From Myxococcota bacterium (GTDB lineage Bacteria; Myxococcota; JACRCW01), in NCBI GenBank assembly GCA_040752415.1, contig JBFMGU010000274.1, positions 1-13,868 of the forward strand: DNA of 13,868 nucleotides, given 5' to 3'. This document shows, piece by piece, positions 1 to 13,736 of this stretch. Both the position numbers and the translations under genes were made by a program. Numbering within the stretch: position 1 is the first letter of the stretch; each line of letters starts with the position of its first letter. The notes below the pieces were generated by a model, which was not told the DNA's origin, made no database searches, and saw nothing but the letters and a program-made list of their open reading frames with translations.

Positions 1-2986
1 CGTCCATGCGGGCGGCGTCGGGAGGCGGGCCTCCGTCGGGGGGAGGGGGCACGGGACCGCAACCGTCCGTCACCAGGCGACACGTGCTGGAACACGAGAG
101 CGCGCCCGGGTGTCCCCCGAGGCTCTCGCAGGTCTGACCGCCCAGGTTCGCGCCGTCGCATTCCTCGTCGTCGGCGATTACACCGTCGCCGCAGCCGCTC
201 ACCTGGACGTCGTCGATGAAGATGCAGTCATCCTCGCTCCCCACACCCACGCCGGCGGAGTGGAGCGGCGGGGCGGGCGCGTTGAGGAGCAGGCTGTCAT
301 CCACCCTCGCCACGACGGAGAAGGCGCCCACCTCCACCTCGTACGTGCGGTACTCGTTGTCGAGCAGGGAGCGGGGAATGCTCGCCAGCAACGTCGGCTC
401 ACCCTGGGTCACCCGGTAGAGTCCCGACGCGCCCGGCTGCGCACTGAAGCGCACGAAGTGGAAGTCCTCCGCCTGCAGGTGATTGAACACCACGACGACA
501 TCAGCGTCGGGATCATTCTCCGCCGCGCGGGCGCGGAACCGCACGTGCGGCGCGGCCAGTCGGGTGTTCGCCAGCAAGGTCACCGCTCCGCTGGTGCGGG
601 CATCCACCGCCAGGCGCGCGTCACCGTGGTCCAGCACCACGTGTGCTCCCGTCGACGCCGGCGGCGCGAAACGATCGAGCTCGCCCACGTTGCCCGTGAG
701 TGAGAACAACCCGTGCGTGGGTCCGCCGCGTGAAAGGCGCGCAACATGGGTCAACCCCTGCTCACGGGGGAAGCGCAACACCGTGGACCCGCTCTGCTGC
801 AAGGCCGAGACGCCGGTGTCGAGGAGATCCGCGTTCAGTGGCTCGGGGAGGAGCACGGTCAGCAGCCCGGTGCCCCGCGCGGGATCCGCGGCGGCCACCG
901 CCAGGTGCTCCCCGTCGTCGACCACGTACAGGACACACGGCTCGTCGACACTGATGCCTTCCATGCTGCCCGATTGCCAGAAGACCAGTCCCAGCTTGTT
1001 GGTCCGCGTGTCGCGAACGGCGGCGCCCAGCGCGTCATTGCGCAGCACCTGGATGGGGTTCTCCGCCGCCCACACCGTCATCTCCGCGGACGAGGCGCCC
1101 GGAACAATGCCGTACGCCACCGACGCGTCCTGCGGCTGCGGGCCGTGCGGGATGGTGAGCGTGAAGATCACGTTCTGGTGATCCACGCGACTGCCCACGC
1201 CCAGGTTGGACCACTTGCCGACCCGCAACTGGCGCGTGAGTTCGACGTCCGCCCCGTCGGGGAAGTGGTAACCCATGCCTTCCGCGGCCACCCAGGTCTC
1301 GTCGGGAATCAGGATCGTGCCGTCGAGGAGGAGCGACGCGCCGGTTCCCACGTCAATGGGCCCATCGGTTCCGGGATGGGGCCGCTGATCCACCACCGTC
1401 TCGACGGGAACCGGCGCCGGGTCGGTGATCTCCGTGGCCAGGAAGTAGATGGCGTCGTCAAAGAAGAACCAGCTCTTGCGCGCGCGCAGCGGTGAGTCCA
1501 CGGCGGCAAAGTCCATGGCTGCCACGCCGTTCCACCCGTCGCCGGTGCCGCCCACGAAGGAGAGCGTGCCGGGACCGTAGATCGCATTGGCCGCATCCAG
1601 GCGGCGCTCCACGGTGATGCCGGGCAAGCGTGCCCAGTCCAAGGTGGGCCATACCTCGTCGGAGAAGTACTCGTCGCCGCGCTGCACCAGGTAGAGCACG
1701 CCGTCGGAGAGCCGGGAGCCAAGCTTGCCTTCCTCGTTGATGATCTCGCCGGAGAGCATGCGCGAGGAGAGCATCTTGATGGACGCGTAGAAGCTCTCTC
1801 GTCGGAAGATGGTGTAGTCGGAGAAGGGATGGTGGCGGAAACCCTCCGGCCAACGGGATTCGCCCGGCTGCGTGCGGAGCTGTCCCGGCAGCGGTGCCAG
1901 ATCCACCGGCAGGCGCATGCTCCACGTCTCCAGCATCCTCTTGGCTGCTTCCGTGATTCCCAGCTGGCGTGTCGTCGGGATGAAGGACATGAAGAGCAGG
2001 GCGCCCAATCCCTGTTCACCGTGATTGCCCTCCCGCGAGAGCTCACGCCCAAGCACGGAGGCGTCAAAGTGGTTCTGGTGGAGCGACCAGCGGATTCCGT
2101 CGGCAACGTAGTGCGCCACCGTCTCCACCGCGTCGGGTGGGAGGGCGTGTTGCGTGTCCCGCGTGAGGTACATGAACCGCGCCACCTGCAGTGCAAGCTC
2201 CGCGCCGTACCCGCCGGTGTAGAGAAGCTCACCGTGCTGGTGGAAGGTCTGGTCGGGCTGGATGCCTTCTCCCGTCGTCGTCACGGACACGGTGGCAATG
2301 GCGTTGCGTGCCGCGTCCAGGCGGGCGGCGTCGCCGGTGATGAGGCCGTGATGGAAGTGCGTCAGCGCGGACCACACCAGGTTCTGCGCCACGCCACGCG
2401 GCTCCGGGCCAATGAACCTCCAGGTGGCGTCGACGAGCCCCTGCCGGATGGTGTCATCCAACGCGTCGCCCATGAGCAGCAGGATGGGCTGCAGGGCAAA
2501 GAGCGGGACGCCGATCTCGTAGAACCACCAGTTGCCGGGATTGGGACACGTGGCGCAATAGTGGCGGAGCCCGCGCTCCAGCCCGATGCGGATCTTCGAC
2601 GGAAGCGTGGGGTCCGCGTAGAGCGCCTGACCCGGCGTCCGGTACGCCTCCGCCATTCTCAGGATGCGCGTGAAATGCGTGTGGATGTCCCAGGTCACGC
2701 CGGGTTGGTCGTCGTAGTTGAGGTCGTGGAAGCGGCCGGTGCTCGTGATGGAGGACGCCACCGCCCGTGCTTCACTCTCCAGCTTCACCAGCATCTGCTG
2801 CACCGCCAGGTCCGTGGTGCGAGCGCCCAGCGCGGTGTGCATCTGGTAGGTGCGAAGCCGGACCTCGTCGAGGTCAGAGGCGCGGGCGGCCTGTGGGAGG
2901 AAACACCACAGGGCCACAAGCACACTCATCACCGGTGCGCCGCCTCTCACTCCGCTCCCTGTTCCCCCGGACTGGATGCGCTGCAT
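1..2986 (-). CDS. Secreted polysaccharide lyase family 8 (chondroitin AC/hyaluronate/xanthan lyase-like) with a C-terminal beta-sandwich domain and Cys-rich repeat; 3' end lies outside the window
   Basis: Manual translation of the minus frame from ATG 2986 (alternative starts: GTG 2950 after GGGAG, or ATG 2929). I found no stop in the stretches I translated, and the same frame holds to the window edge (at least 995 codons). Signal-peptide-like N-terminus (VMSVLVALWCFLPQAARA|SD). PL8 motifs: GNWWFYEIGVP (~2510-2536), AQNLVW, EGIQPDQTFHQHGELLYTGGYG (~2204-2269, catalytic His/Tyr region), DWARLPGITV, FVGG, ARKSWFFFDDAIYFL. The + ORFs 110-703, 746-1495 and 1829-3235 are its antisense shadow. Confidence 0.92.
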   Translation of the reverse strand, partial: MQRIQSGGTGSGVRGGAPVMSVLVALWCFLPQAARASDLDEVRLRTYQMHTALGARTTDLAVQQMLVKLESEARAVASSITSTGRFHDLNYDDQPGVTWDIHTHFTRILRMAEAYRTPGQALYADPTLPSKIRIGLERGLRHYCATCPNPGNWWFYEIGVPLFALQPILLLMGDALDDTIRQGLVDATWRFIGPEPRGVAQNLVWSALTHFHHGLITGDAARLDAARNAIATVSVTTTGEGIQPDQTFHQHGELLYTGGYGAELALQVARFMYLTRDTQHALPPDAVETVAHYVADGIRWSLHQNHFDASVLGRELSREGNHGEQGLGALLFMSFIPTTRQLGITEAAKRMLETWSMRLPVDLAPLPGQLRTQPGESRWPEGFRHHPFSDYTIFRRESFYASIKMLSSRMLSGEIINEEGKLGSRLSDGVLYLVQRGDEYFSDEVWPTLDWARLPGITVERRLDAANAIYGPGTLSFVGGTGDGWNGVAAMDFAAVDSPLRARKSWFFFDDAIYFLATEITDPAPVPVETVVDQRPHPGTDGPIDVGTGASLLLDGTILIPDETWVAAEGMGYHFPDGADVELTRQLRVGKWSNLGVGSRVDHQNVIFTLTIPHGPQPQDASVAYGIVPGASSAEMTVWAAENPIQVLRNDALGAAVRDTRTNKLGLVFWQSGSMEGISVDEPCVLYVVDDGEHLAVAAADPARGTGLLTVLLPEPLNADLLDTGVSALQQSGSTVLRFPREQGLTHVARLSRGGPTHGLFSLTGNVGELDRFAPPASTGAHVVLDHGDARLAVDARTSGAVTLLANTRLAAPHVRFRARAAENDPDADVVVVFNHLQAEDFHFVRFSAQPGASGLYRVTQGEPTLLASIPRSLLDNEYRTYEVEVGAFSVVARVDDSLLLNAPAPPLHSAGVGVGSEDDCIFIDDVQVSGCGDGVIADDEECDGANLGGQTCESLGGHPGALSCSSTCRLVTDGCGPVPPPPDGGPPPDAARMD
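59..193 (-). other. Myxococcus-type cysteine-rich repeat module within the PL8 protein
   Basis: Translates as CGDGVIADDEECDGANLGGQTCESLGGHPGALSCSSTCRLVTDGC, followed by the Pro-rich linker GPVPPPPDGGPPPD. Confidence 0.8.
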
Positions 2987-3203
2987 GGGTCTTGGCACGA
3001 CCCGCGTGAGTGCACGGGTCCCGGTGTTCTGATGCGCCTGGGTGCGGGTGCTCCGGAGGTTGCGGGCTGCCGTGCAACATCCGCGTCAACGGCGATTCTA
3101 ACCAGCCAGGGTGCCCGCTCCACGTCGGAAAAGCGCGCCGCGGCCGGGACGACATGCAACACAAAAGCCCACACAACGCTTTTCCACGACGACGCGCGCC
3201 CGC

Positions 3204-5720
3204 TCAGCTCTTCAATCGCTTCTGCAGCGCGGTGAGCAGACGCAACAGATCCTGTCTTCCTGTGAGGACGGGAGCCATGGGATCGCCCACCTTCTGCAGG
3301 CGCGCGGGTGCGGTCTTGATGGTGTGGTGCGCCGGGTTCAGTTTCTGCGTGAGCTCGTCCCAGTGCAGCGGCATGGACACCGGGGCGCCGTCACGGGGTC
3401 GCACGGAGAACGGGCCGGCAATGAGCTTGCCAAACCCGTTCTGCAGGAAGTCGACGTAGATCTTCCCGTCACGCGCGTTCACGTTGCGCGCCACGGTGCA
3501 GATGTCGCCGCGCTCCTGCACCACCACGCGCGCCAGCACCTCCGCCAACGTCTTCGCCTCGTTGTGCTGCAGCTCCGCGCCCAGGGGCAGCAGGATGTGC
3601 AATCCGTCCTGTCCCGACGTCTTCAGGTAGTGGGGCGCCTTCAGCTCGTCGAGAAGCGCGTGGATGTGTTGCGCCAGCTCAATGACCTGGGAGAGCGGCG
3701 CGCCCTTGGGGTCCAGGTCCAGGATGGTCCAGTCCGGACGGTCCAGGGAGTCCTTCCGCGCGCTCCAGATGTGCAGCGGGATGGCGCCAGAGTTGATCAC
3801 GTACAGGAGCGTGGTGACGTCGTTGCAGACGAAGTAGTCGGTGTCCTCGATGCGGTAGGTGTTCACCCACTCCGGCGTGAAGGGCGGCGCGTTCTTCTGG
3901 TAGAAGTTCTTGCCGTCAACTCCGTCGGGATAACGCGTGAGCACCAGCGGCCGGTTGTGCAGGTACGGGCCCAGCCATGGCCACACCGCCTCGTAGTACG
4001 TGAGCAGGTCGCCCTTGGTGTACCCGTCGCGTGGCCAGAAGATCTTGTCCTGGTTGACCAGCTGGAATGTGGGTGGGGGCGGGGGCTCCAGCGCGGGTTC
4101 CGGCTCCGGCGCGGGGGAGCGCTCCGCCGGCGCGGCGCAATCCATCACGCCCTTCCCGTCGACGAGACCGATGAAGACGGGATGACGCAGGATGCCCGCG
4201 CTGGTGATGTCGGTGTAGCGCACGGAGGCCACCAGCTCCGGCTCCACGTAGTTGGTGCCCTTCTGCGGCGGCTTGGGCACGGCGTCACACGCGGGAGTCT
4301 TGCGGATGCGCGGCTGCAGGAGCTTGTGCAGGTGTTTGCGCGTGGCCTCGTCAAAACCGGTGCCCACGTTGCCCGCGTAGACAAGCTTGTCCTCCACGCG
4401 CCAGGCCACCATGAGCGAGGCAAGGTCGTTCCCGGTGCCCCGCGTTGGAAGATAGCCCACCACCGCCACGTCGACACTGCGGGGCGCCTTGATCTTCACC
4501 CAGTCCGTGCTGCGCTTGCCGGCCTGGTATTTCGAGTCGGCGCGCTTGGCCATGATGCCTTCCAGGCCGTGCTCGCGGACGGCGTCAAAGAGCATCTGTC
4601 CTTCGCGCGGGACGTGATCGGTGAAGCGCACCACGCCCAGCTTGGGGACCAGCCGCTGCAGCATCTCCTTGCGCGTGATCAGCGGGAGCGTGGTGAGGTC
4701 CCACCCGTCGACAAAGAGCAGGTCAAACGCGAAGAGCGTCAACGGCAGCTCGAATTCATGGCGGGCCACCGCGGACTTCTCCGGGCGGTGCAGCCGCTTC
4801 TGGATGCGCTCGAACCGCGCCACGCCGCGCTCATCCAGACCCACCACCTCGCCGTCCAGCACGCACTCGTCCACGGGGAGATGCGTCACCGCGCGCGCAA
4901 TCTCCGGCACCAGCGGCGTCACCTCGCGACCGTTGCGCGTGAACACGCGGACGCGCCGGTTGGCCTCCTTCTGCACCAGGACGCGCCAGCCGTCGTACTT
5001 GATCTCGAAGATCCAGTCGGCGTGCGTGAACGCGTTGCTCTGCGACGTCGCCAGCATGGGCTCCAGTCGCGCCACGTCCATGGCCTTGCGCACCGCACCG
5101 GCTTGCTCCGCGCGCTCGCCAAGCTCCGCGTCACGTCGGACGCCCTGGTCCAGCTCCTCGATGCTCAGGCCGGAGAGGACGGAGTAGGGCTGCATCACCA
5201 CCAGCTCGTCGCGGGAGGGAGGCTCACCGTCGGCGTAGTGGAACAACAGCCAGTTCTTCCCGTCCTCACCCTTGGTGCGCACGAACTTCCAGCGGCCGCG
5301 CATCTTCAGCCCCTGGAAGAACAGGTCCAGCTTGCCGTTGGCCAGTCCGTCGCGGGGGTGGACGCCGTCGTGGGAGCGGTACGTGCCGTGGTCCCACAGG
5401 ATCATGGCTCCCGCGCCGTAGTTTCCCTTGGGGATGATCCCCTCGAAGACGCGGTAGTCCATGGGGTGATCTTCCGTCTGGACCGCCAGCCGCTTCTCCT
5501 TGGGATCCAACGCCGGACCCTTGGGCACCGCAAAGCTCACCAGCACGCCGTCGATCTCCAGGCGCACGTCCCAGTGCATTCGCGTGGCGTCGTGCTGCTG
5601 CACCACGAAGACATGCGGCGCGGTGGCCGGGAGGTTGGGGGTGGGCTGCCCGCCGAAGGGCTCGGGCGTGGACGTCGGGTCCCGCTTCTTTCGGTAGACG
5701 TCAAGAGCCCGTGTTGCCAC
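3204..5720 (-). CDS. ligD: DNA ligase D, the multifunctional NHEJ enzyme; domain order phosphoesterase - ATP-dependent ligase - primase/polymerase
   Basis: PE domain: FVVQQHDATRMHWDVRLE...AVPKGP...KRLAVQTEDHP...GNYGAG. Ligase motif I EIKYDGWR, plus LDGEVV, FAFDLL, EGIMAK, WVKIK and LRHPVF. POL domain: NQDKIFWP..GYTKGDL, RYPDG..GKNFYQK, ILDLDP, KTSG..GLHI, KIYVDFLQN. GTG start. Confidence 0.97.
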   Translation of the reverse strand: MATRALDVYRKKRDPTSTPEPFGGQPTPNLPATAPHVFVVQQHDATRMHWDVRLEIDGVLVSFAVPKGPALDPKEKRLAVQTEDHPMDYRVFEGIIPKGNYGAGAMILWDHGTYRSHDGVHPRDGLANGKLDLFFQGLKMRGRWKFVRTKGEDGKNWLLFHYADGEPPSRDELVVMQPYSVLSGLSIEELDQGVRRDAELGERAEQAGAVRKAMDVARLEPMLATSQSNAFTHADWIFEIKYDGWRVLVQKEANRRVRVFTRNGREVTPLVPEIARAVTHLPVDECVLDGEVVGLDERGVARFERIQKRLHRPEKSAVARHEFELPLTLFAFDLLFVDGWDLTTLPLITRKEMLQRLVPKLGVVRFTDHVPREGQMLFDAVREHGLEGIMAKRADSKYQAGKRSTDWVKIKAPRSVDVAVVGYLPTRGTGNDLASLMVAWRVEDKLVYAGNVGTGFDEATRKHLHKLLQPRIRKTPACDAVPKPPQKGTNYVEPELVASVRYTDITSAGILRHPVFIGLVDGKGVMDCAAPAERSPAPEPEPALEPPPPPTFQLVNQDKIFWPRDGYTKGDLLTYYEAVWPWLGPYLHNRPLVLTRYPDGVDGKNFYQKNAPPFTPEWVNTYRIEDTDYFVCNDVTTLLYVINSGAIPLHIWSARKDSLDRPDWTILDLDPKGAPLSQVIELAQHIHALLDELKAPHYLKTSGQDGLHILLPLGAELQHNEAKTLAEVLARVVVQERGDICTVARNVNARDGKIYVDFLQNGFGKLIAGPFSVRPRDGAPVSMPLHWDELTQKLNPAHHTIKTAPARLQKVGDPMAPVLTGRQDLLRLLTALQKRLKS

Positions 5721-5887
5721 CTGGAAACATCTAACGGATCAGCCCTTTGCCACGCAAAATCCCGCGGATCCGGGGCGCCAAATGGATCCGCGCGGATCTC
5801 GTGGGAACCCCAGGGATCTGCTTGTGATCTGGCGCGTGCGACGGCGGAGATGTATCCGATCACCGATCACAACGATCCGGAGGCTCC
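5721..5887. promoter_or_regulatory. Divergent ligD/ku control region with a GATC repeat array
   Basis: 167-bp gap between divergent starts. GATC begins at 5737, 5767, 5785, 5795, 5815, 5826, 5858, 5865 and 5874. Perfect 9-bp inverted repeat CGCGGATCC (5763-5771) / GGATCCGCG (5784-5792). ku ribosome-binding site GGAGG at 5879-5883. Confidence 0.75.
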
Positions 5888-6766
5888 ATGGCGGCGCGTG
5901 CAAGCTCCACGGCGGTGATTTCGTTCGGCCTGGTCACCGTCCCCGTCAAGCTCTATGCGGCGGCGTCGTCGAAAAACGTGTCCTTCAACATGCTGCATGA
6001 CAAGGACAAGTCCCGACTCAAGCAGCAGTACGTGTGTCAGCTGTGCGGTGAGCAGGTGGACCGCGCGCACACGGTGAAGGGCTATGAGCACGCCAAGGAC
6101 CAGTACGTGGTGCTTTCCGAGGAGGAGCTGAAGGCGCTGGAGAAGAAGACCGACAACTCCATCGAGATCCTGGAGTTCGTTCCCATTGTCTCGGTGGACC
6201 CCGTCTACTTCGAGCGCAGCACGCTGCTGGGGCCGGACAAGGGCGGCGCCAAAGCGTACTCGCTGCTCAACCAGGCCATGATGCAGGCGGGTCGTGTTGC
6301 GGTGGGCCGCTTTGCCACGCGCGGCAAGGAGCAGCTGGTGCTGGTCAGGCCCACCAAGGACGGCCTGATGCTGCACGCGCTCTACTACCACGACGAGGTT
6401 CGCGGTTTTGAAGACGTGGAGAAGGGCGAGCCGGCGCAGGTGCGCGACAAGGAGCTCGATCTCGCCGTCCAGCTCATCGAGCAGCTCGCGGTGCCGGCGT
6501 ACAAGGCGGAAAAGTACCAGGACGACTACCGCACGCAGGTCCTGGAGATGATCGACAAGAAGGTTGCCGGCCAGGAAATCGTTGCGCAGGCGCCGCAGCA
6601 GCCCAAGGAGCAGATCATCGACCTGGTGGAGGCTCTCAAGGCCAGCCTGGCGTCGAAGCAGGGCGCGCCGGTTGTGGTTGCTACGAACGATGATGAGGAC
6701 CGCAAGCCCGCCGTGGCGAAGGGCAGCGAGTCCGGGAAGAAGCGTGCTAAAGCAGCCAAGGCGTGA
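5888..6766 (+). CDS. ku: Prokaryotic Ku protein (NHEJ DNA end-binding)
   Basis: ISFGLVTVPVKLYAA, FNMLH, VKGYE..KDQYVVLSEEEL, IEILEFVP...VDPVYFE, AYSLL..AM, EKYQDDYR, IIDLVEALKASL and a basic C-terminal tail. GGAGG RBS. Divergent from ligD. Confidence 0.97.
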   Translation: MAARASSTAVISFGLVTVPVKLYAAASSKNVSFNMLHDKDKSRLKQQYVCQLCGEQVDRAHTVKGYEHAKDQYVVLSEEELKALEKKTDNSIEILEFVPIVSVDPVYFERSTLLGPDKGGAKAYSLLNQAMMQAGRVAVGRFATRGKEQLVLVRPTKDGLMLHALYYHDEVRGFEDVEKGEPAQVRDKELDLAVQLIEQLAVPAYKAEKYQDDYRTQVLEMIDKKVAGQEIVAQAPQQPKEQIIDLVEALKASLASKQGAPVVVATNDDEDRKPAVAKGSESGKKRAKAAKA

Positions 6767-7593
6767 CGCAGACGTTTCCCCTGGCTGAAGTTGCTCGCAT
6801 CCTTGGCGTGCCCGCCGCGCGTGTCCGTGCGCTGGTGGACGCGGGCGTGTGCCAGCCGGTTGTCGTCGGGGAGAAGCTTGAGTTCACCTTCCAGGACCTG
6901 GTGAAGCTGCGCGCAGCCAAAGGCGTGCAGGACGCGGAGCCCTCCTCACCGCGCGGGCCCATGCCGGCGGTGCAGCCGGTGACGTCGCTGGTCTCGTCGG
7001 GGAGGAAGACGACGGTGCAGGAGGTGCGCACCACGTGGTCGGAGAGCGGGCAGGGGCTCCTGTTTGGCGGAGATGACGTCGTCACCGGGAAGGATGCTGT
7101 CGAGGACGTGGGGGAGGCGCTCTCCCTGGTGGAGCGGCGCGCGCTCAAGCAGGCAGAGCACGCGCAGGAGCAACGTGAGGAGGCGCTGGGGCTCTTCGAG
7201 CAGGCGCTGGCCATGGAGACGGAGGACCCGGCGGGCGCGGTGGACGCGTACCGTCGTGCGCTGGAGTTGGACCCCAATCTCAGCGACGTCTACGTGAACC
7301 TCGGTCGCATGGCGCACCAGGCCGGCCGCGTGGCTGACGCCGTCAAACTGTACGAGAAGGCCCTCTCCATCACCGAGGACGACCCGGTGGCGCACTACAA
7401 CGTGGCGCTGGCGTTGGAGGACCGTCGCAACGTGGCGGCGGCCGTCACGCACTACCAGCGCGCCGTGGAGCTGGACCCGCGTTTTGGCGACGCGCATTAC
7501 AACCTGGCGCGCCTCTATGAGCGCACCGGTCAACGTGGGAAGGCGCTGCAGCACCTGCTCATCTGCAAGCGGCTGCAGGACGGGAAGGCATGA
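6763..7593 (+). CDS. MerR-like helix-turn-helix + tetratricopeptide-repeat protein, operonic with ku
   Basis: GTG start overlaps the ku stop (GTGA 6763-6766). N-terminal FPLAEVARILGVPAARVRALVDAGVCQP...FTFQDLVKLR is MerR/Xis-like winged HTH. C-terminal region has about four TPRs (AVDAYRRALELDP, VYVNLG, YEKALSITEDDPVAHYNVA, YQRAVELDPRFGDAHYNLA). Confidence 0.88.
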   Translation: MTQTFPLAEVARILGVPAARVRALVDAGVCQPVVVGEKLEFTFQDLVKLRAAKGVQDAEPSSPRGPMPAVQPVTSLVSSGRKTTVQEVRTTWSESGQGLLFGGDDVVTGKDAVEDVGEALSLVERRALKQAEHAQEQREEALGLFEQALAMETEDPAGAVDAYRRALELDPNLSDVYVNLGRMAHQAGRVADAVKLYEKALSITEDDPVAHYNVALALEDRRNVAAAVTHYQRAVELDPRFGDAHYNLARLYERTGQRGKALQHLLICKRLQDGKA

Positions 7594-7618
7594 CGACAGG
7601 TGCGCCGGCCACCATGCT
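7590..7618 (+). promoter_or_regulatory. Possible sigma70-type promoter for a leaderless mRNA of the coiled-coil gene
   Basis: ATGACG (7590-7595) - 17 bp - CATGCT (7613-7618) - 6 bp - ATG 7625; no Shine-Dalgarno upstream. Confidence 0.4.
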
Positions 7619-7624
7619 GGCGCC

Positions 7625-7933
7625 ATGAGCACCCGACGTAACGGCGGCGCCAGTGTCTTCCCTGCGGAAGCGTTCAAGCTGTTCCGCCAGATGGCAGAGA
7701 GCCTCAAGCGCTTGGAGCAAGGCCAGGCCGAGACGAACGAGCGCATCGACAAGCTTGAGCGGAACACCACGAAGGCCTTGGTGGGCCTGAGCGATCGCAT
7801 TGACCGTCTCGGCTCCACGCTCAAGCAGGAGTTCAAGCACGACCACATCCGGATGCGGGCCCCACAGGACAAGCTCGCGCGTCGCGTTGACGGGCTGGAG
7901 GACCGGCTCTCCAAGCTCGAAGGGAAACGCTAG
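7625..7933 (+). CDS. Small coiled-coil hypothetical protein (102 aa)
   Basis: MSTRRNGGASVFPAEAFKLFRQMAESLKRLEQGQAETNERIDKLE...RVDGLEDRLSKLEGKR shows a heptad pattern and GC-rich third positions. Start moved to ATG 7625 so the gene no longer overlaps the TPR gene as in the 7484 ORF-track call. Confidence 0.75.
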   Translation: MSTRRNGGASVFPAEAFKLFRQMAESLKRLEQGQAETNERIDKLERNTTKALVGLSDRIDRLGSTLKQEFKHDHIRMRAPQDKLARRVDGLEDRLSKLEGKR

Positions 7934-7940
7934 GAAAGAC

Positions 7941-8190
7941 GTGCTGCCGCGCTGGCCTGGGATGCCCGGATCGTCGACGGAAAACCGCAACCCACAAGCC
8001 GCGTCAATCCGTCCCCACCCGACCCGTGCCCAGTAAGGTCGTACGACCGTCGTCGGGCGCGCTGACGCGCGCATCCATTCCCCGCTTGGGGAACCGGGGC
8101 ATGTCAGGCCGGCGCGGCATGGTTGCCGCAAACCGGGTGGAACAGCATTCACGTCGTCAATCCGGGCATCCCAGGTCAGCGCGGCAGCAC
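7941..8190. repeat. 250-bp intergenic element bounded by 39-bp inverted repeats (MITE-like or structured RNA)
   Basis: Left arm 7941-7979 GTGCTGCCGCGCTGGCCTGGGATGCCCGGATCGTCGACG. Reverse complement of right arm 8152-8190 is GTGCTGCCGCGCTGACCTGGGATGCCCGGATTGACGACG. 36/39 positions identical. Confidence 0.85.
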
Positions 8191-8217
8191 ATGTGCCGCA
8201 GGTCCTCCTACGGGTCC

Positions 8218-8412
8218 TCAACTGCTCGCCATGGCGTGATGCAGGGCCTCCAGCCCGTCCGGGTCCGCTCCCACGTCGGGACCGGTGGAAGGGTTGGCCA
8301 GCGTCTTGATGAGCGCCAGCTCCACCAACGCGGACATGGACTTCCCCGTGCGGGAGCTTTCCACCCGCAACCGCGCCATGACGGCGTCCGCAATCACGAA
8401 GGTGGCTTTCAT
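8218..8412 (-). CDS. Ribbon-helix-helix (CopG/VapB-like antitoxin-type) protein, 64 aa
   Basis: MKATFVIADAVMARLRVESSRTGKSMSALVELAL fits the RHH beta-alpha-alpha pattern of VapB/CopG-type proteins. No toxin gene adjacent. Confidence 0.72.
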   Translation of the reverse strand: MKATFVIADAVMARLRVESSRTGKSMSALVELALIKTLANPSTGPDVGADPDGLEALHHAMASS

Positions 8413-8418
8413 GCTGGT

Positions 8419-8447
8419 GAGTTACGGACGCGTCACAACAGCGTCAA
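8419..8447 (-). promoter_or_regulatory. Possible promoter for a leaderless RHH transcript
   Basis: Minus strand TTGACG (8447-8442) - 17 bp - TAACTC (8424-8419) - 6 bp - ATG 8412. No SD. The -10 element is imperfect. Confidence 0.4.
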
Positions 8448-8510
8448 CCCGGGGTGACACCGCGCCGCGCCCGCCGTGACGACGTGGACATGCGCCATCC
8501 GGGTAGGCCC

Positions 8511-8578: not shown

Positions 8579-10273
<1,695 letters not shown>

Positions 10274-10476
10274 GAAATCAGTGCGTCCTTTCACGCATGC
10301 GGGTCCAAGGCATTCGGGCAAGCGGCGTTTCAGCCAAAAGAGCCCGTGGGTCATGAGAGCGAGCGGCGGGGACCCCATGTCCCCAGCAGACCGCCCGCGC
10401 AAGGTGCCCGGACAAACCCACCTTGCTTGGTTGAACTCTGCGTTGCCTTCCAGACCCACCATGGGCTTGGAAAGGC
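10274..10476 (-). promoter_or_regulatory. Long, structured rpsA 5' leader (candidate cis-regulatory RNA)
   Basis: Consecutive hairpins on the minus strand: GCCTTTCCA..TGGAAGGC; GCAAGGTG..CACCTTGC; GCGGGCGG..GGGGAC-ATGGG-GTCCCC..CCGCTCGC; TGCGT-GAAAGG-ACGCA next to the start codon. Confidence 0.55.
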
Positions 10477-10481
10477 GGGGC

Positions 10482-10510
10482 ACCCTAGGAGGCAGGAATC
10501 TGCGCGTCAA
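10482..10510 (-). promoter_or_regulatory. Sigma70-type promoter of rpsA
   Basis: TTGACG (10510-10505) - 17 bp - TAGGGT (10487-10482). Confidence 0.7.
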
Positions 10511-10648: not shown

Positions 10649-12238
10649 TCACGCCAGCACCCGACGGGCGCGCTGCCAGTACTGGTACCGGTCGCTGTAA
10701 CCGTTGGTGCCGCCGTTGATCGACGTGGTGATGCCGTAGAAGTCGTTGCGGTCGGCCTTCGCGTTCAGGCCGTGGGTGCGCCAGAACAGCGAGGCGATGC
10801 GGAAGCCCACCGACGGACGCGCGGCCAGCCACGGCTTGCGCTCCAGCGGAAGGCCCAGCAGCTGCCCGTAGCGACGGTAGTTGGCCCGCCCGGTGAGCTG
10901 GATGGGGCCGCGGCCGTGGTAGCGCGCGCCGTCGCCGGGACGGGTGTTCCCCAGGTCGGAGCGGCCCTCGTACATGCGCGTGAAGTAGGAACGGTCGCCC
11001 AGCTCCTCGAACGTGGTGAGGCCAATGCTCTCGTGCGCCAGCTGCGCCACGAAGTGCGCCTGACGACGGGGCGAGGTGATTCCCTGCTCCCGCATGGCCG
11101 TGTTGAGCAGCGGCGCGTAGCGACGGGCGGTGCTGGCCGGAAGGTTGGGCATGATCGCGCGCAGCTCACGCGGGCTCACCGTCCGACGATCCAGCTCCTT
11201 CTCCATCTTGCGGATCTGGCTGCTCTGGATGGCGCCGTCGGCCTTGAGGTGGTTCTTGCGCTCGAACGACTTCACCGCGCGCTCGGTCTGCTTGGTGAAG
11301 AGGCCGTCCACCTTGCCCACGCTGTAACCCAGCTGCTTGAGAAGCCGCTCGCTGCGCAGCACGGCGCGGGAACGCTCGCCCTCACGCTGGGCGGGGGCGC
11401 CGGCCTTGGTGCTGTAGATTTCCGCCTTGCCCAGCTTGTTCCACGTGGCCTCGTCGACGCGGCCCGTGACCGGCAGCTTGCTCCGCCGCTGGAACGCCTT
11501 CAGGGCGCCCTCGGTGCGCTCGTCGAACTTCCCGTCGGTGTGCTTGGGGTCGTAGCCCGCGGCGCGGAGCTTGAGCTGCACGTTCTTGACGTGCCGGCCG
11601 TTCTCACCCACGCCAAAGCCGGTGGTGCCGTCCAGGTTGGTGCGCGCGGCGCGCGTCGTCGTCAGGGAGTCCAGGCGACGGTGCTCCGCCGACGGCTTGG
11701 TCCGACCGCGGTAGGGATCATGGCTGAGCGCCTTGGTCTCACGCTCCAGGACCTGCTGGCCGCGCGTGCCCAGGATTTCCTGGTGGTTGCCCTTGAGGTC
11801 GCGGGGCTGGTCCTTCTTGAAGGCGGCCACGGCCTTGGCGGTGTCGCCGTCAAACACGCCGTCGACGGCGCCGGGGTCATAGCCCAGCCGCTTGAGGCGC
11901 TTCTCCGCCTCCAGGACGCGGTCGCCGGCCTGGCCCTTGCCAATCCACCCGTCGTGGTTGCGCACGCGCGCCTGCACGCCCTTGAGCTGCTTGAAGGTGG
12001 CCTCGTCCAGCTGGCCGGTCTCCGGGAGGCCCACGCTCTTCTGGAAGCCGCGGAGGGCGGTGGTGGTCTTGGCGGTGAACTTGTTGTCGACGACGCCGGG
12101 GTCAAAGCCCGCCAGCTTGAGGTTCCGCTCCACCGTCTTCACCTCGCGCTGGTTGGCGCCCTCGGAGATGGGGCCCTTGGTGCGAAGGTGGGTATCAACG
12201 CGCTTGTTGGCGGCCTTTTCGGAACGGGACACAGCCAC
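10649..12238 (-). CDS. Peptidoglycan hydrolase: four PG_binding_1 domains + C-terminal glycoside hydrolase family 19 (lysozyme/endolysin-like) domain
   Basis: Four repeats of the L..LGYDPG.VDG.F...T..A...FQ....L...G type. GH19 motifs AHFVAQLAHES, YEGRSDLGNTRPGDGARYHGRGPIQLTGRANY, FW...GLN..AD, ITTSINGGTNG..DR. GGAGG RBS 5 nt before GTG 12238. Confidence 0.93.
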   Translation of the reverse strand: MAVSRSEKAANKRVDTHLRTKGPISEGANQREVKTVERNLKLAGFDPGVVDNKFTAKTTTALRGFQKSVGLPETGQLDEATFKQLKGVQARVRNHDGWIGKGQAGDRVLEAEKRLKRLGYDPGAVDGVFDGDTAKAVAAFKKDQPRDLKGNHQEILGTRGQQVLERETKALSHDPYRGRTKPSAEHRRLDSLTTTRAARTNLDGTTGFGVGENGRHVKNVQLKLRAAGYDPKHTDGKFDERTEGALKAFQRRSKLPVTGRVDEATWNKLGKAEIYSTKAGAPAQREGERSRAVLRSERLLKQLGYSVGKVDGLFTKQTERAVKSFERKNHLKADGAIQSSQIRKMEKELDRRTVSPRELRAIMPNLPASTARRYAPLLNTAMREQGITSPRRQAHFVAQLAHESIGLTTFEELGDRSYFTRMYEGRSDLGNTRPGDGARYHGRGPIQLTGRANYRRYGQLLGLPLERKPWLAARPSVGFRIASLFWRTHGLNAKADRNDFYGITTSINGGTNGYSDRYQYWQRARRVLA

Positions 12239-12383: not shown

Positions 12384-13736
12384 GTGGCCGACGAGAATGA
12401 CCGCAACAAGAACCGCTCCACGCCGCCACCGACGGGGAGACTGGCCAGGCTGACGAGGTTGGGGAGCACAGCCACGGCGGTAACGGCGCGCGCGGCGCTG
12501 CAGAAGCTCAAGGAGACGGTGGCGCCCTCGGCGGACCACGCCGTTGCGCGCGCGGAGATGCTGCAGCGCAGTGGCAAGGACGTGGCGGCGACGTTGGCGG
12601 AGCTGAAGGGCGCGGCCATGAAGGTGGGCCAGCTGCTCTCCATTGACCCGCAGGTCCTTCCCCACGAGGTGCGCTCCGCGCTCTCCGAGCTGCAACACGG
12701 CGCTCCGCCCATGCCGTTCCCGATGGTGGAGCAGGTGGTGAGCGAGGCGTTGGGCGGGCCGCTGTCGTCGTTCTTCCGTTCCTTTGACGAGCAGCCGCTC
12801 GGTGCCGCGTCCATTGGCCAGGTGCACGGCGCGGTGACGCGCGAGGGCGAATCCGTGGCGGTGAAGGTGCAGTACCCGGGCATCGCCGACACCATCGACA
12901 GCGACGTCAAGAACCTGGGCATGGTGTTGCAGGTCTCACGCGTGGTGACGCCGGGCGTGCAGGTGGACGCGTACCTGGAGGAGTTCCGCCAGGTGCTGCA
13001 GCGTGAGGCGGACTACGTGCAGGAAGCGGACGCGCTCCGACGCTACGGCGAGCTGTTCCGCGCGGAGTTCCCCGGCACGCGCACTCCCCGCGCATTCCCC
13101 GGGCTCACGCGCAAGAACGTGCTCACCATGGAACGCATGCACGGGCGCAAGCTCGACGAGCACCTGGCGTCGCTGGGACACGCGGAGCGCACGGAGCTGG
13201 CCACGCGTTTCCTGGTCACGTACATGCGCCTCTTCCACGAGTTCTACACGCTGCACGCCGACCCGCACCCCGGCAACTTCCTGGTCGACGACGACGGGAA
13301 CCTCATCGTCCTCGATTTCGGGTGCGTGCGTGACTTCGAGCGTCGCTTCTCCAACGGGTTCACCGGGCTCTTGCGCGCGCAGTGGAAGGGTGACGCGGAT
13401 GCTCTTCCCGCGCTGTACCGCAGCATGGAATTCGGCACGCCCGACGCGAAGGGGCTCCACGACCCCGAGATGCTCTACGACTGGGGCGACGTCTTCCTGG
13501 AGCCGTTTCTCAAGGACGAGGAGTTCAACTTCCCGGCGTGGCGGCTCGAGGACAAGGCGACCGCGTTCCTGAAGGAGAATCCCGCCATCCTGACGCTGCC
13601 GCCGCCGAGACCGGCGCTGTTCTACTTCCGCGTGTGCGCGGGTGTTCGCGGGATGCTGACGCGCACGGACAGCCGCGTGAACGTCTACCGCTGCGCCAAA
13701 GGCGTGGACCGACGGCTGCGTGGGAAGGGTGTCTAG
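12384..13736 (+). CDS. ABC1/AarF/UbiB family atypical protein kinase
   Basis: LKGAAMKVGQLLS (KxGQ), PLGAASIGQVH, VAVKVQYPGI..TIDSD, E.DY.QEA, VLTME, LHADPHPGNF, LDFGCV. Confidence 0.95.
   Translation: MADENDRNKNRSTPPPTGRLARLTRLGSTATAVTARAALQKLKETVAPSADHAVARAEMLQRSGKDVAATLAELKGAAMKVGQLLSIDPQVLPHEVRSALSELQHGAPPMPFPMVEQVVSEALGGPLSSFFRSFDEQPLGAASIGQVHGAVTREGESVAVKVQYPGIADTIDSDVKNLGMVLQVSRVVTPGVQVDAYLEEFRQVLQREADYVQEADALRRYGELFRAEFPGTRTPRAFPGLTRKNVLTMERMHGRKLDEHLASLGHAERTELATRFLVTYMRLFHEFYTLHADPHPGNFLVDDDGNLIVLDFGCVRDFERRFSNGFTGLLRAQWKGDADALPALYRSMEFGTPDAKGLHDPEMLYDWGDVFLEPFLKDEEFNFPAWRLEDKATAFLKENPAILTLPPPRPALFYFRVCAGVRGMLTRTDSRVNVYRCAKGVDRRLRGKGV

Follow-up and report, generated by a model that had tools for sequence, protein, structure and literature searches.

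The window analysed in the current study (13,868 nt; positions 1 – 13,868 of contig JBFMGU010000274.1, Myxococcota bacterium assembly GCA_040752415.1) carries genes for the two known proteins with which bacteria carry out non-homologous end joining (NHEJ), Ku and LigD, and directly behind ku a third gene, referred to here as the partner, which encodes a MerR-type winged helix-turn-helix (HTH) followed by tetratricopeptide repeats (TPRs). Partner genes stand behind ku in loci from several bacterial phyla, and all partner-linked Ku proteins fall in a single lineage, here termed Ku-A. It is very probable that the partner is functionally tied to Ku-A modules, and bacterial 'two-protein' end joining probably has a third player in this one ku lineage. 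The partner may be a DNA-bound adaptor of Ku and the third component of Ku-A end-joining modules, a reading to which we assign a probability of about 0.4. An earlier inspection of the sequence by a model (the original prediction) had proposed an accessory NHEJ factor, either a scaffold or a regulator; the tie to the ku lineage and the linkage to ku support a functional tie to NHEJ, and neither the scaffold nor the regulator is singled out.

Linkage of the partner gene to ku

Gene neighbourhoods were compared in the best 80 of 569 relatives found in species genomes. These are the most similar relatives, so that the result describes the orthologous group and not the entire family. In 72 of the 80 loci, Ku is encoded upstream of the partner on the same strand (tblastn). 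Of the eight misses, four loci have less than 300 nt of upstream sequence (L019, L025, L072, L079) and four are truly without ku (L011, L012, L022, L035). The 80 loci come from Binatia, Myxococcota, Acidobacteriota, Gemmatimonadota, Burkholderiales, other Gammaproteobacteria and Acidimicrobiia, and the Burkholderiales carriers include an isolate, Ramlibacter monticola. LigD is encoded inside the flank at 62 of the 80 loci, on either side and on either strand, and the order from ku to partner is fixed.

The two genes are closely spaced. Where ku stands upstream on the same strand (103 loci), the median distance between its stop codon and the nearest possible partner start is 28 nt; a 4-nt overlap occurs in seven, a gap of 0–30 nt in 47, of 31–150 nt in 36 and of more than 150 nt in 10, and the three remaining values are negative, owing to Ku frames that continue past the usual stop. 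An internal stop interrupts the Ku frame of L075 (9057 – 9965), and that of L058 (about 9085 – 10203) runs beyond the partner start; either gene may be broken, or the sequence may contain errors. In a tree of the partner family (134 rows, after removal of L095, L109 and L113, which had no tblastn match to the N-terminal part, and of L130, which was cut), adjacency to Ku (102 of 134 rows) is scattered over the whole tree. For the orthologous group, therefore, the juxtaposition of homologues with ku and ligD that the original prediction implied is strongly supported by the 72 linked loci, the gap lengths and the family tree, and the contrary case, in which homologues are mostly unlinked, does not apply to it.

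A less biased sample consisted of 401 genomes drawn evenly from the phylum of the window, the unpublished G195 included. A profile of the N-terminal domain of the partner matched 164 of these genomes and Ku was matched in 227. Both were present in 140 (among them G195), the domain alone in 24, Ku alone in 87 and neither in 150, giving an odds ratio of 10, uncorrected for kinship.

A word-indexed search with the partner protein returned 1130 proteins at E ≤ 1e-3 among 7695 candidates; the closest homologue besides the window protein itself is 52% identical, and the other matches listed share 39–47% identity. In the databases, homologues are labelled only 'TPR repeat protein', 'excisionase family DNA binding protein', 'predicted Zn-dependent protease' or 'hypothetical protein'. 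NCBIfam has no model specific to the partner, and of its 23 generic TPR matches only the TPR_END_plus domain exceeds its cut-off. A BRCT domain was absent among the 120 homologues listed and from all ten N-terminally extended representatives.

Two lineages of Ku

The Ku tree comprised 136 rows, for which 40 loci without an adjacent partner had been fetched, 26 of them from genomes without a copy of the partner N-terminal domain and 14 being second Ku copies. Left out were sequences that began elsewhere than at the Ku N-terminus, that continued beyond the end of the locus or that were shorter than 200 aa (L150, L163 and L186 among them). The tree resolves into two clades, with a support of 100 on both sides (SH-like approximate likelihood ratio test, SH-aLRT). 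The Ku-A clade (105 rows) contains all 96 partner-linked Ku, eight without a partner and one unassigned. The other clade (31 rows) consists of 30 partner-less Ku and one unassigned, and so holds 30 of the 38 partner-less sequences, including second copies from genomes that also have a partner-linked Ku. Although the label 'no partner' was set by design, the result is that such rows segregate rather than mix. Two of the eight partner-less rows in Ku-A (L058, L100) are artefacts of the labelling rule, as the partner is present there.

The lineages also differ in their C-terminal tails. The motif I(I)DL[MV].AL occurs in 93 of 105 Ku-A sequences and in none of the 31 others, RKP in 59 of 105 against 2 of 31, and GE.R[HR] in 0 of 105 against 14 of 31. 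Example tails are IIDLMEAL...RKP (L001 – L146) and VVNLMDAL...GERRHR (L148 – L187). Both lineages usually adjoin LigD, and they are found together in single genomes (e.g. G133, G084, G155, G161 and G259). As the partner follows one Ku lineage and is strongly adjacent to ku, a functional tie to NHEJ is well supported. Since the two Ku lineages, one linked to a partner and one not, have different tails, they also provide a natural control pair for experiments.

The window locus

The features of the locus are listed in Table 1. LigD of the window is a three-domain NHEJ ligase, with four Pfam domains in order (LigD_N, 6.2e-39; DNA_ligase_A_M, 1.5e-38; DNA_ligase_A_C, 1.3e-21; LigD_Prim-Pol, 5.4e-80) and a TIGR02776 score of 528.8 bits (cut-off 373.2). 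The product of ku is a bacterial Ku according to PF02735 (9.5e-50; 169.6 bits, cut-off 25) and TIGR02772 (Ku_bact; 278.3 bits, cut-off 150). At the junction, which reads ..GCC AAG GCG TGA CGC.., the ku stop codon TGA (6764 – 6766) and the partner start codon GTG (6763 – 6765) share the 4-bp overlap GTGA. This GTG is supported as the start because homologues begin at the same alignment position. The partner is probably on the same transcript as Ku and translationally coupled to it. The genome (11.0 Mb, 520 contigs) has a single Ku and a single full-length partner copy, and these are adjacent. The overlap itself, and a ligD that diverges from the same spacer, had been part of the original prediction and are borne out by the sequence and by the Pfam and NCBIfam matches.

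Table 1. Coordinates of the end-joining genes and of the partner protein regions in the window.
Feature	Position (nt)	Strand	Details and basis
ligD, 838 aa	3204–5720	-	phosphoesterase, ligase and primase-polymerase domains; Pfam, NCBIfam TIGR02776
ligD-ku divergent control region	5721–5887		167 bp
ku, 292 aa, Ku-A lineage	5888–6766	+	tail with IIDLVEALKASL ... RKP; Pfam, TIGR02772, Ku tree
partner gene, 276 aa, MerR-type winged HTH and TPRs	6763–7593	+	GTG start overlaps ku stop (GTGA)
MerR-type winged HTH, residues 1–57	6763–6933	+	AF2 pLDDT 80–97; profile and VIA-align
diverged middle region, residues 58–115	6934–7107	+	alignment; W92 and G96-Q97 retained; QGLLF at 7051–7065
single long helix, putative dimerisation helix, residues 122–151	7126–7215	+	AF2
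three TPRs and capping helix, residues 156–272	7228–7578	+	Pfam; AF2 pLDDT about 98; Foldseek

Other genes in the window encode a PL8 polysaccharide lyase (2 – 2998, minus strand), a protein with six S1 domains that resembles ribosomal protein S1 (8579 – 10510, minus), a protein with four PG_binding_1 domains and a GH19-like part (10649 – 12238, minus) and an ABC1/UbiB-type kinase (12384 – 13736, plus). Two further frames (7559 – 8221, minus; 8026 – 8457, plus) have no family match.

Architecture of the partner protein

An AlphaFold2 (AF2) model of the window partner, built with 26 homologues, has an overall predicted confidence (pLDDT) of 84. Residues 61–114 fall below 50 and are probably flexible. 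Pfam detects MerR_1 at residues 7–56 (1.2e-4; 22.5 bits, cut-off 21.6), and a profile of the N-terminal 140 residues of the family, compared with solved structures, matched only MerR-type domains, with GlnR first (1.1e-5) and then CueR, CarH, TnrA and RacA. The model of a canonical member, L008 (pLDDT 80), shows four MerR helices and a wing (residues 7–75), a four-strand unit (85–111) and a helix (116–129). Structural alignment of this N-terminus with VIA-align gave TnrA (Z 10.1; root-mean-square deviation 1.9 over 78 residues), RacA (9.4), GlnR (9.3), CvkR (9.2), CueR (8.8) and pSK1 Par (8.3); the MerR fold covers residues 1–78 only, and the beta unit is without a match. In Foldseek searches with the N-terminal model, MerR-type folds ranked at the top, yet none reached E ≤ 1e-3. 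Matches in the ESM Atlas are to MerR-labelled clusters only. The MerR_1, GlnR profile and TnrA fold matches identify a MerR-type winged HTH at the partner N-terminus, as had been read from the sequence, with part of the fourth helix missing from the window copy.

In MerR proteins the HTH is followed at once by a long dimerisation helix that forms an antiparallel coiled coil. In the partner the four-strand unit comes first, and a long helix follows at 116–129 (L008) or 122–151 (window). The beta unit closes with an invariant W..GQ..L.F string, represented by QGLLF in the window. Its G and Q are invariant in 26 of 26 and in 33 of 33 aligned sequences, and the pattern GQ..[LFIMV].[FL] is found in 114 of 117 mainstream members and in all 17 members of two clades that are unlinked to ku (described below).

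TPRs are well supported in the C-terminal part, TPR proteins being defined by at least three tandem 34-residue helix-turn-helix repeats. TPR_1, TPR_2 and TPR_11 each match three stretches above their cut-offs (TPR_11, 9e-24), and Foldseek matches a consensus TPR (1.6e-8). The repeats had originally been put at about four, which is slightly generous, as AF2 places seven helices at residues 156–272, corresponding to three TPRs and a capping helix. An asparagine stands in the first helix of each repeat: N179 and N247 are invariant, and N213 is present in at least 90% of the alignment. Such an asparagine ladder is a peptide-gripping feature of OGT-like TPRs. With the full model, Foldseek returned TPR proteins only (among them consensus TPR, MamA and OGT, the last being one of the best matches), which is uninformative on function.

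The ligD-ku spacer

The spacer of the window contains a perfect 9-bp inverted repeat, CGCGGATCC-N12-GGATCCGCG, at 5763 – 5792, and a palindrome, GATCCGCGCGGATC, that occurs twice in the whole genome. GGAGG stands 6 nt before the ku ATG. There are also nine GATC sites in these 167 bp (5736 – 5877), compared with 50 in the other 13.7 kb of the window and about 0.5 predicted from the genome rate, which makes the spacer one of only eight spots in 11 Mb with at least seven GATC per 170 bp. Neither the repeat nor the GATC cluster is conserved in relatives. A GATC or GCGGATC regulon was considered and dropped: relatives are without the cluster, and the other seven dense spots lie by or in unrelated genes (sensor kinases, cupin, gatC and amidase, D-Ala ligase).

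A comparison of ku upstream regions (130 nt; L001 – L146) in seven groups of relatives revealed no conserved dyad. Common to the relatives in this position are only a -10-like box (GTTATCAT, TGGTATATT or TATAAT) 6–12 nt before the ATG, and ligD coding sequence. In many of them the ligD ATG is only about 25 nt from this box, and in clade A of the relatives the -35/-10 spacing is about 16. A box placed 6–12 nt before the ku ATG, with the ligD ATG about 25 nt further, suggests a leaderless or near-leaderless ku mRNA and back-to-back promoters that share one AT-rich box. Promoters activated by MerR proteins have a 19–20 bp spacer and contain the operator dyad.

Possible roles of the partner

The domain make-up, the order and coupling of the two genes and the association with a single Ku lineage are observed, whereas DNA binding in vivo, dimerisation, a TPR ligand and any effect on joining are inferred. 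As an adaptor, the partner would grip duplex DNA by its MerR-type winged HTH, and the long helix may pair two partner copies. The groove of the three TPRs, with its asparagine ladder, would bind an extended peptide, the likeliest ligand being the basic C-terminal tail that marks Ku-A. In this way the partner may tether, gate or release Ku, and via Ku also LigD, at a break. The adaptor is favoured by the fixed gene order, the tight coupling, the restriction to one Ku lineage with its own tail and the lack of a conserved operator. The presence of RacA and pSK1 Par among the fold matches was also counted in its favour, as both use a MerR-type HTH as a DNA tether. A fold of two Ku chains with the partner, of the kind proposed alongside the original prediction, scored 0.40 (runs of 0.40, 0.45 and 0.40, with at least 53% of contacts in common and a partner pLDDT of at least 68) against 0.00 for the best of three controls, and was graded as weak support for binding; in the benchmark, 116 of 157 solved complexes passed the mark, as did 2 of 215 mismatched pairs, and those that passed with 0.60 or under were only 18 of the 157 and both of the mismatches. 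A search for longer forms of the family recovered one in-frame Ku::partner fusion, P0123 (535 aa). The second longer form turned out to be a miscalled frame.

Several observations weigh against an adaptor of Ku. Complex scores in the band just described are more often wrong than right unless the complex is likely beforehand. The fusion P0123 lacks the Ku basic tail, i.e. the proposed ligand, and is a singleton on a 2.1-kb contig, so that it is possibly a sequencing error. The window copy itself sits on a long branch of the family tree (0.93, compared with a median of 0.32) and has a damaged middle region, from which about nine residues are missing that belong to the fourth MerR helix in the family. 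For the HTH, every leading match in sequence and in fold is a transcription factor. Nor is the family bound to Ku. In a sample of one locus per genus from the phylum of the window (56 genera and one extra locus, making 57, with seven genera omitted that had weak matches), 30 loci have ku directly upstream and 2 have it nearby; in the other 25 it was not found, although 5 of these have less than 1.5 kb of upstream sequence. Of the 164 genomes with the N-terminal domain in the phylum sample, 24 have no Ku. Conversely, at least six Ku-A genes are without a partner, one of them in the only genome from the same family as the window, G011 (L147, G011:C124), which has a divergent ligD and a Ku-A gene and no partner. 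The frame that follows ku in G011 gives only a weak kinase-like match.

Two clades of the partner family are moreover unlinked to ku (SH-aLRT 100). Members of the larger one (11 rows) are mostly from genomes in which no Ku was found. Its neighbours, in eight loci examined, include a divergent REC-GGDEF pair (6 of 8), NAD kinase (5 of 8) and DUF4388 (3 of 8). The REC-GGDEF (diguanylate cyclase) genes stand in tandem and divergent from the family member in L093, L094, L096, L107, L114 and L115. In the smaller clade (6 rows) a divergent SIR2 gene is present in two of five loci (L132, 5584 – 6312, minus strand; L136, 3812 – 4573, minus). In mycobacteria, a Sir2 homologue has been connected with NHEJ. 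Neither clade has lost the HTH or the TPR asparagines, and the W..GQ..L.F string is present in 17 of 17 members.

It is also quite conceivable, if short of likely, that the partner is a MerR-type transcription regulator dedicated to the control of the ku operon and of the ligD that diverges from it, perhaps one that senses a protein or peptide, maybe free Ku, through its TPRs in the manner of GlnR and TnrA. Its N-terminus is a true MerR-type DNA-binding domain, as the GlnR and TnrA matches given above indicate; members of the unlinked clades diverge from other genes (REC-GGDEF, SIR2) as local regulators do, and the family persists in Ku-less genomes. For these reasons a regulatory role stays close. 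An HTH joined to TPRs is likewise the receptor-regulator layout of the RNPP family, and the window spacer, with its perfect inverted repeat, its palindrome and its rare GATC density, could be taken for an operator region. The repeat and the GATC cluster are, however, not conserved in relatives, and what is shared upstream of ku in the seven groups is a -10-like box and ligD coding sequence rather than a dyad. The ligD start, at about 25 nt from the box, and the clade A spacing of about 16, in place of 19–20, also argue against it. The fixed order, the 4-nt overlaps and the restriction to one Ku lineage fit a stoichiometric partner better, although they are still compatible with a regulator. 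A regulator that senses a protein would unite the adaptor and the regulatory role.

The invariant W..GQ..L.F string allows a more general proposal, in which the partner is a DNA-bound adaptor that docks through this motif not on Ku but on a protein common to all bacteria, for instance the beta sliding clamp, Ku-A being merely the commonest client of the TPRs. The string is shared by mainstream and unlinked members alike, including those from Ku-less genomes, its G and Q do not vary, and it resembles the clamp-binding pentapeptide QL[SD]LF; the QGLLF of the window lies in a stretch of low confidence that is probably flexible. In the model of the canonical member, however, the motif forms the final strand of the folded four-strand unit (pLDDT about 80) and not a free peptide, and its second position is variable, where clamp motifs prefer Leu. 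This proposal is considered unlikely. Less likely still is that the partner is a passenger, which rides with ku by descent and by horizontal transfer of the module and has no part in end joining. The partner-less module of G011, the at least six Ku-A genes without a partner and the 87 of 227 Ku-positive genomes without a copy in the phylum sample are what a passenger would leave. Against this, order and tight spacing have been maintained across phyla at only 33–45% protein identity, and ligD shifts its position around the ku-partner pair; a conserved order and spacing beside a mobile ligD are not expected of a passenger.

Comparison with known systems

The two-component NHEJ systems of Mycobacterium, Bacillus subtilis and Pseudomonas likewise consist of Ku and a three-domain LigD. 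In the window this pair is divergent, and what differs is a third gene, which in one Ku lineage has a constant place behind ku. To our knowledge the model NHEJ organisms are without the partner gene, and we know of no mechanistic NHEJ work from a species that has it. The N-terminal 75 residues have their best matches, by sequence and by fold, in GlnR and TnrA, in which a MerR HTH is steered by contact with glutamine synthetase, but the partner has the beta unit and TPRs in place of a short C-terminal tail, and its loci revealed neither a conserved operator nor a long promoter spacer. RacA (Z 9.4) and pSK1 Par (Z 8.3) have the same fold and combine their HTH with a protein-binding rod; they have no TPRs, and they act in chromosome or plasmid positioning, not in repair. 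The RNPP receptors (PlcR, NprR, Rap, AimR) share the order of HTH and TPRs, but theirs is an N-terminal XRE-type HTH followed by 5–9 peptide-binding TPRs. The partner, with its MerR-type HTH and only three TPRs, is therefore not a member of this family, and no sequence match to RNPP receptors was obtained in any search made here.

Eukaryotic end joining employs XLF, PAXX and APLF, small non-enzymatic factors that dock on Ku. They have other domains and no homology to the partner; the analogy is functional only, and binding of the partner to Ku is putative.

The original prediction knew of no functional characterisation of such a factor, and this has held: full-text searches of the openly available literature returned no description of an HTH/TPR partner of bacterial Ku. 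Passages of PMC5862659, PMC11936186 and PMC7719229 make no mention of one; the neighbourhood analysis in PMC7719229 deals with ku versus ligD only. In their abstracts and listings, NHEJ papers up to 2026 continue to present the system as Ku and LigD alone.

Implications for bacterial end joining

Textbook bacterial NHEJ consists of Ku and LigD, and the partner offers a direct and cheap test for accessory end-joining factors or for a dedicated Ku-linked regulator. With clustering at 50% identity, an exhaustive profile search with the N-terminal part puts the family at 3307 clusters for E ≤ 1e-3, at 1492 for 1e-10 and at 405 for 1e-30. Tentatively, many soil and sediment phyla may use three-protein end joining, in which a dimeric partner is held by duplex DNA and by the tail of Ku-A, possibly also by the clamp through the W..GQ..L.F string, and either bridges or holds the ends or loads or unloads the Ku ring. 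If this were true, the partner would be a bacterial counterpart of XLF, PAXX or APLF in role, though not in ancestry. It could also bear on how Ku is restrained on DNA or removed from it, and on how NHEJ is switched on.

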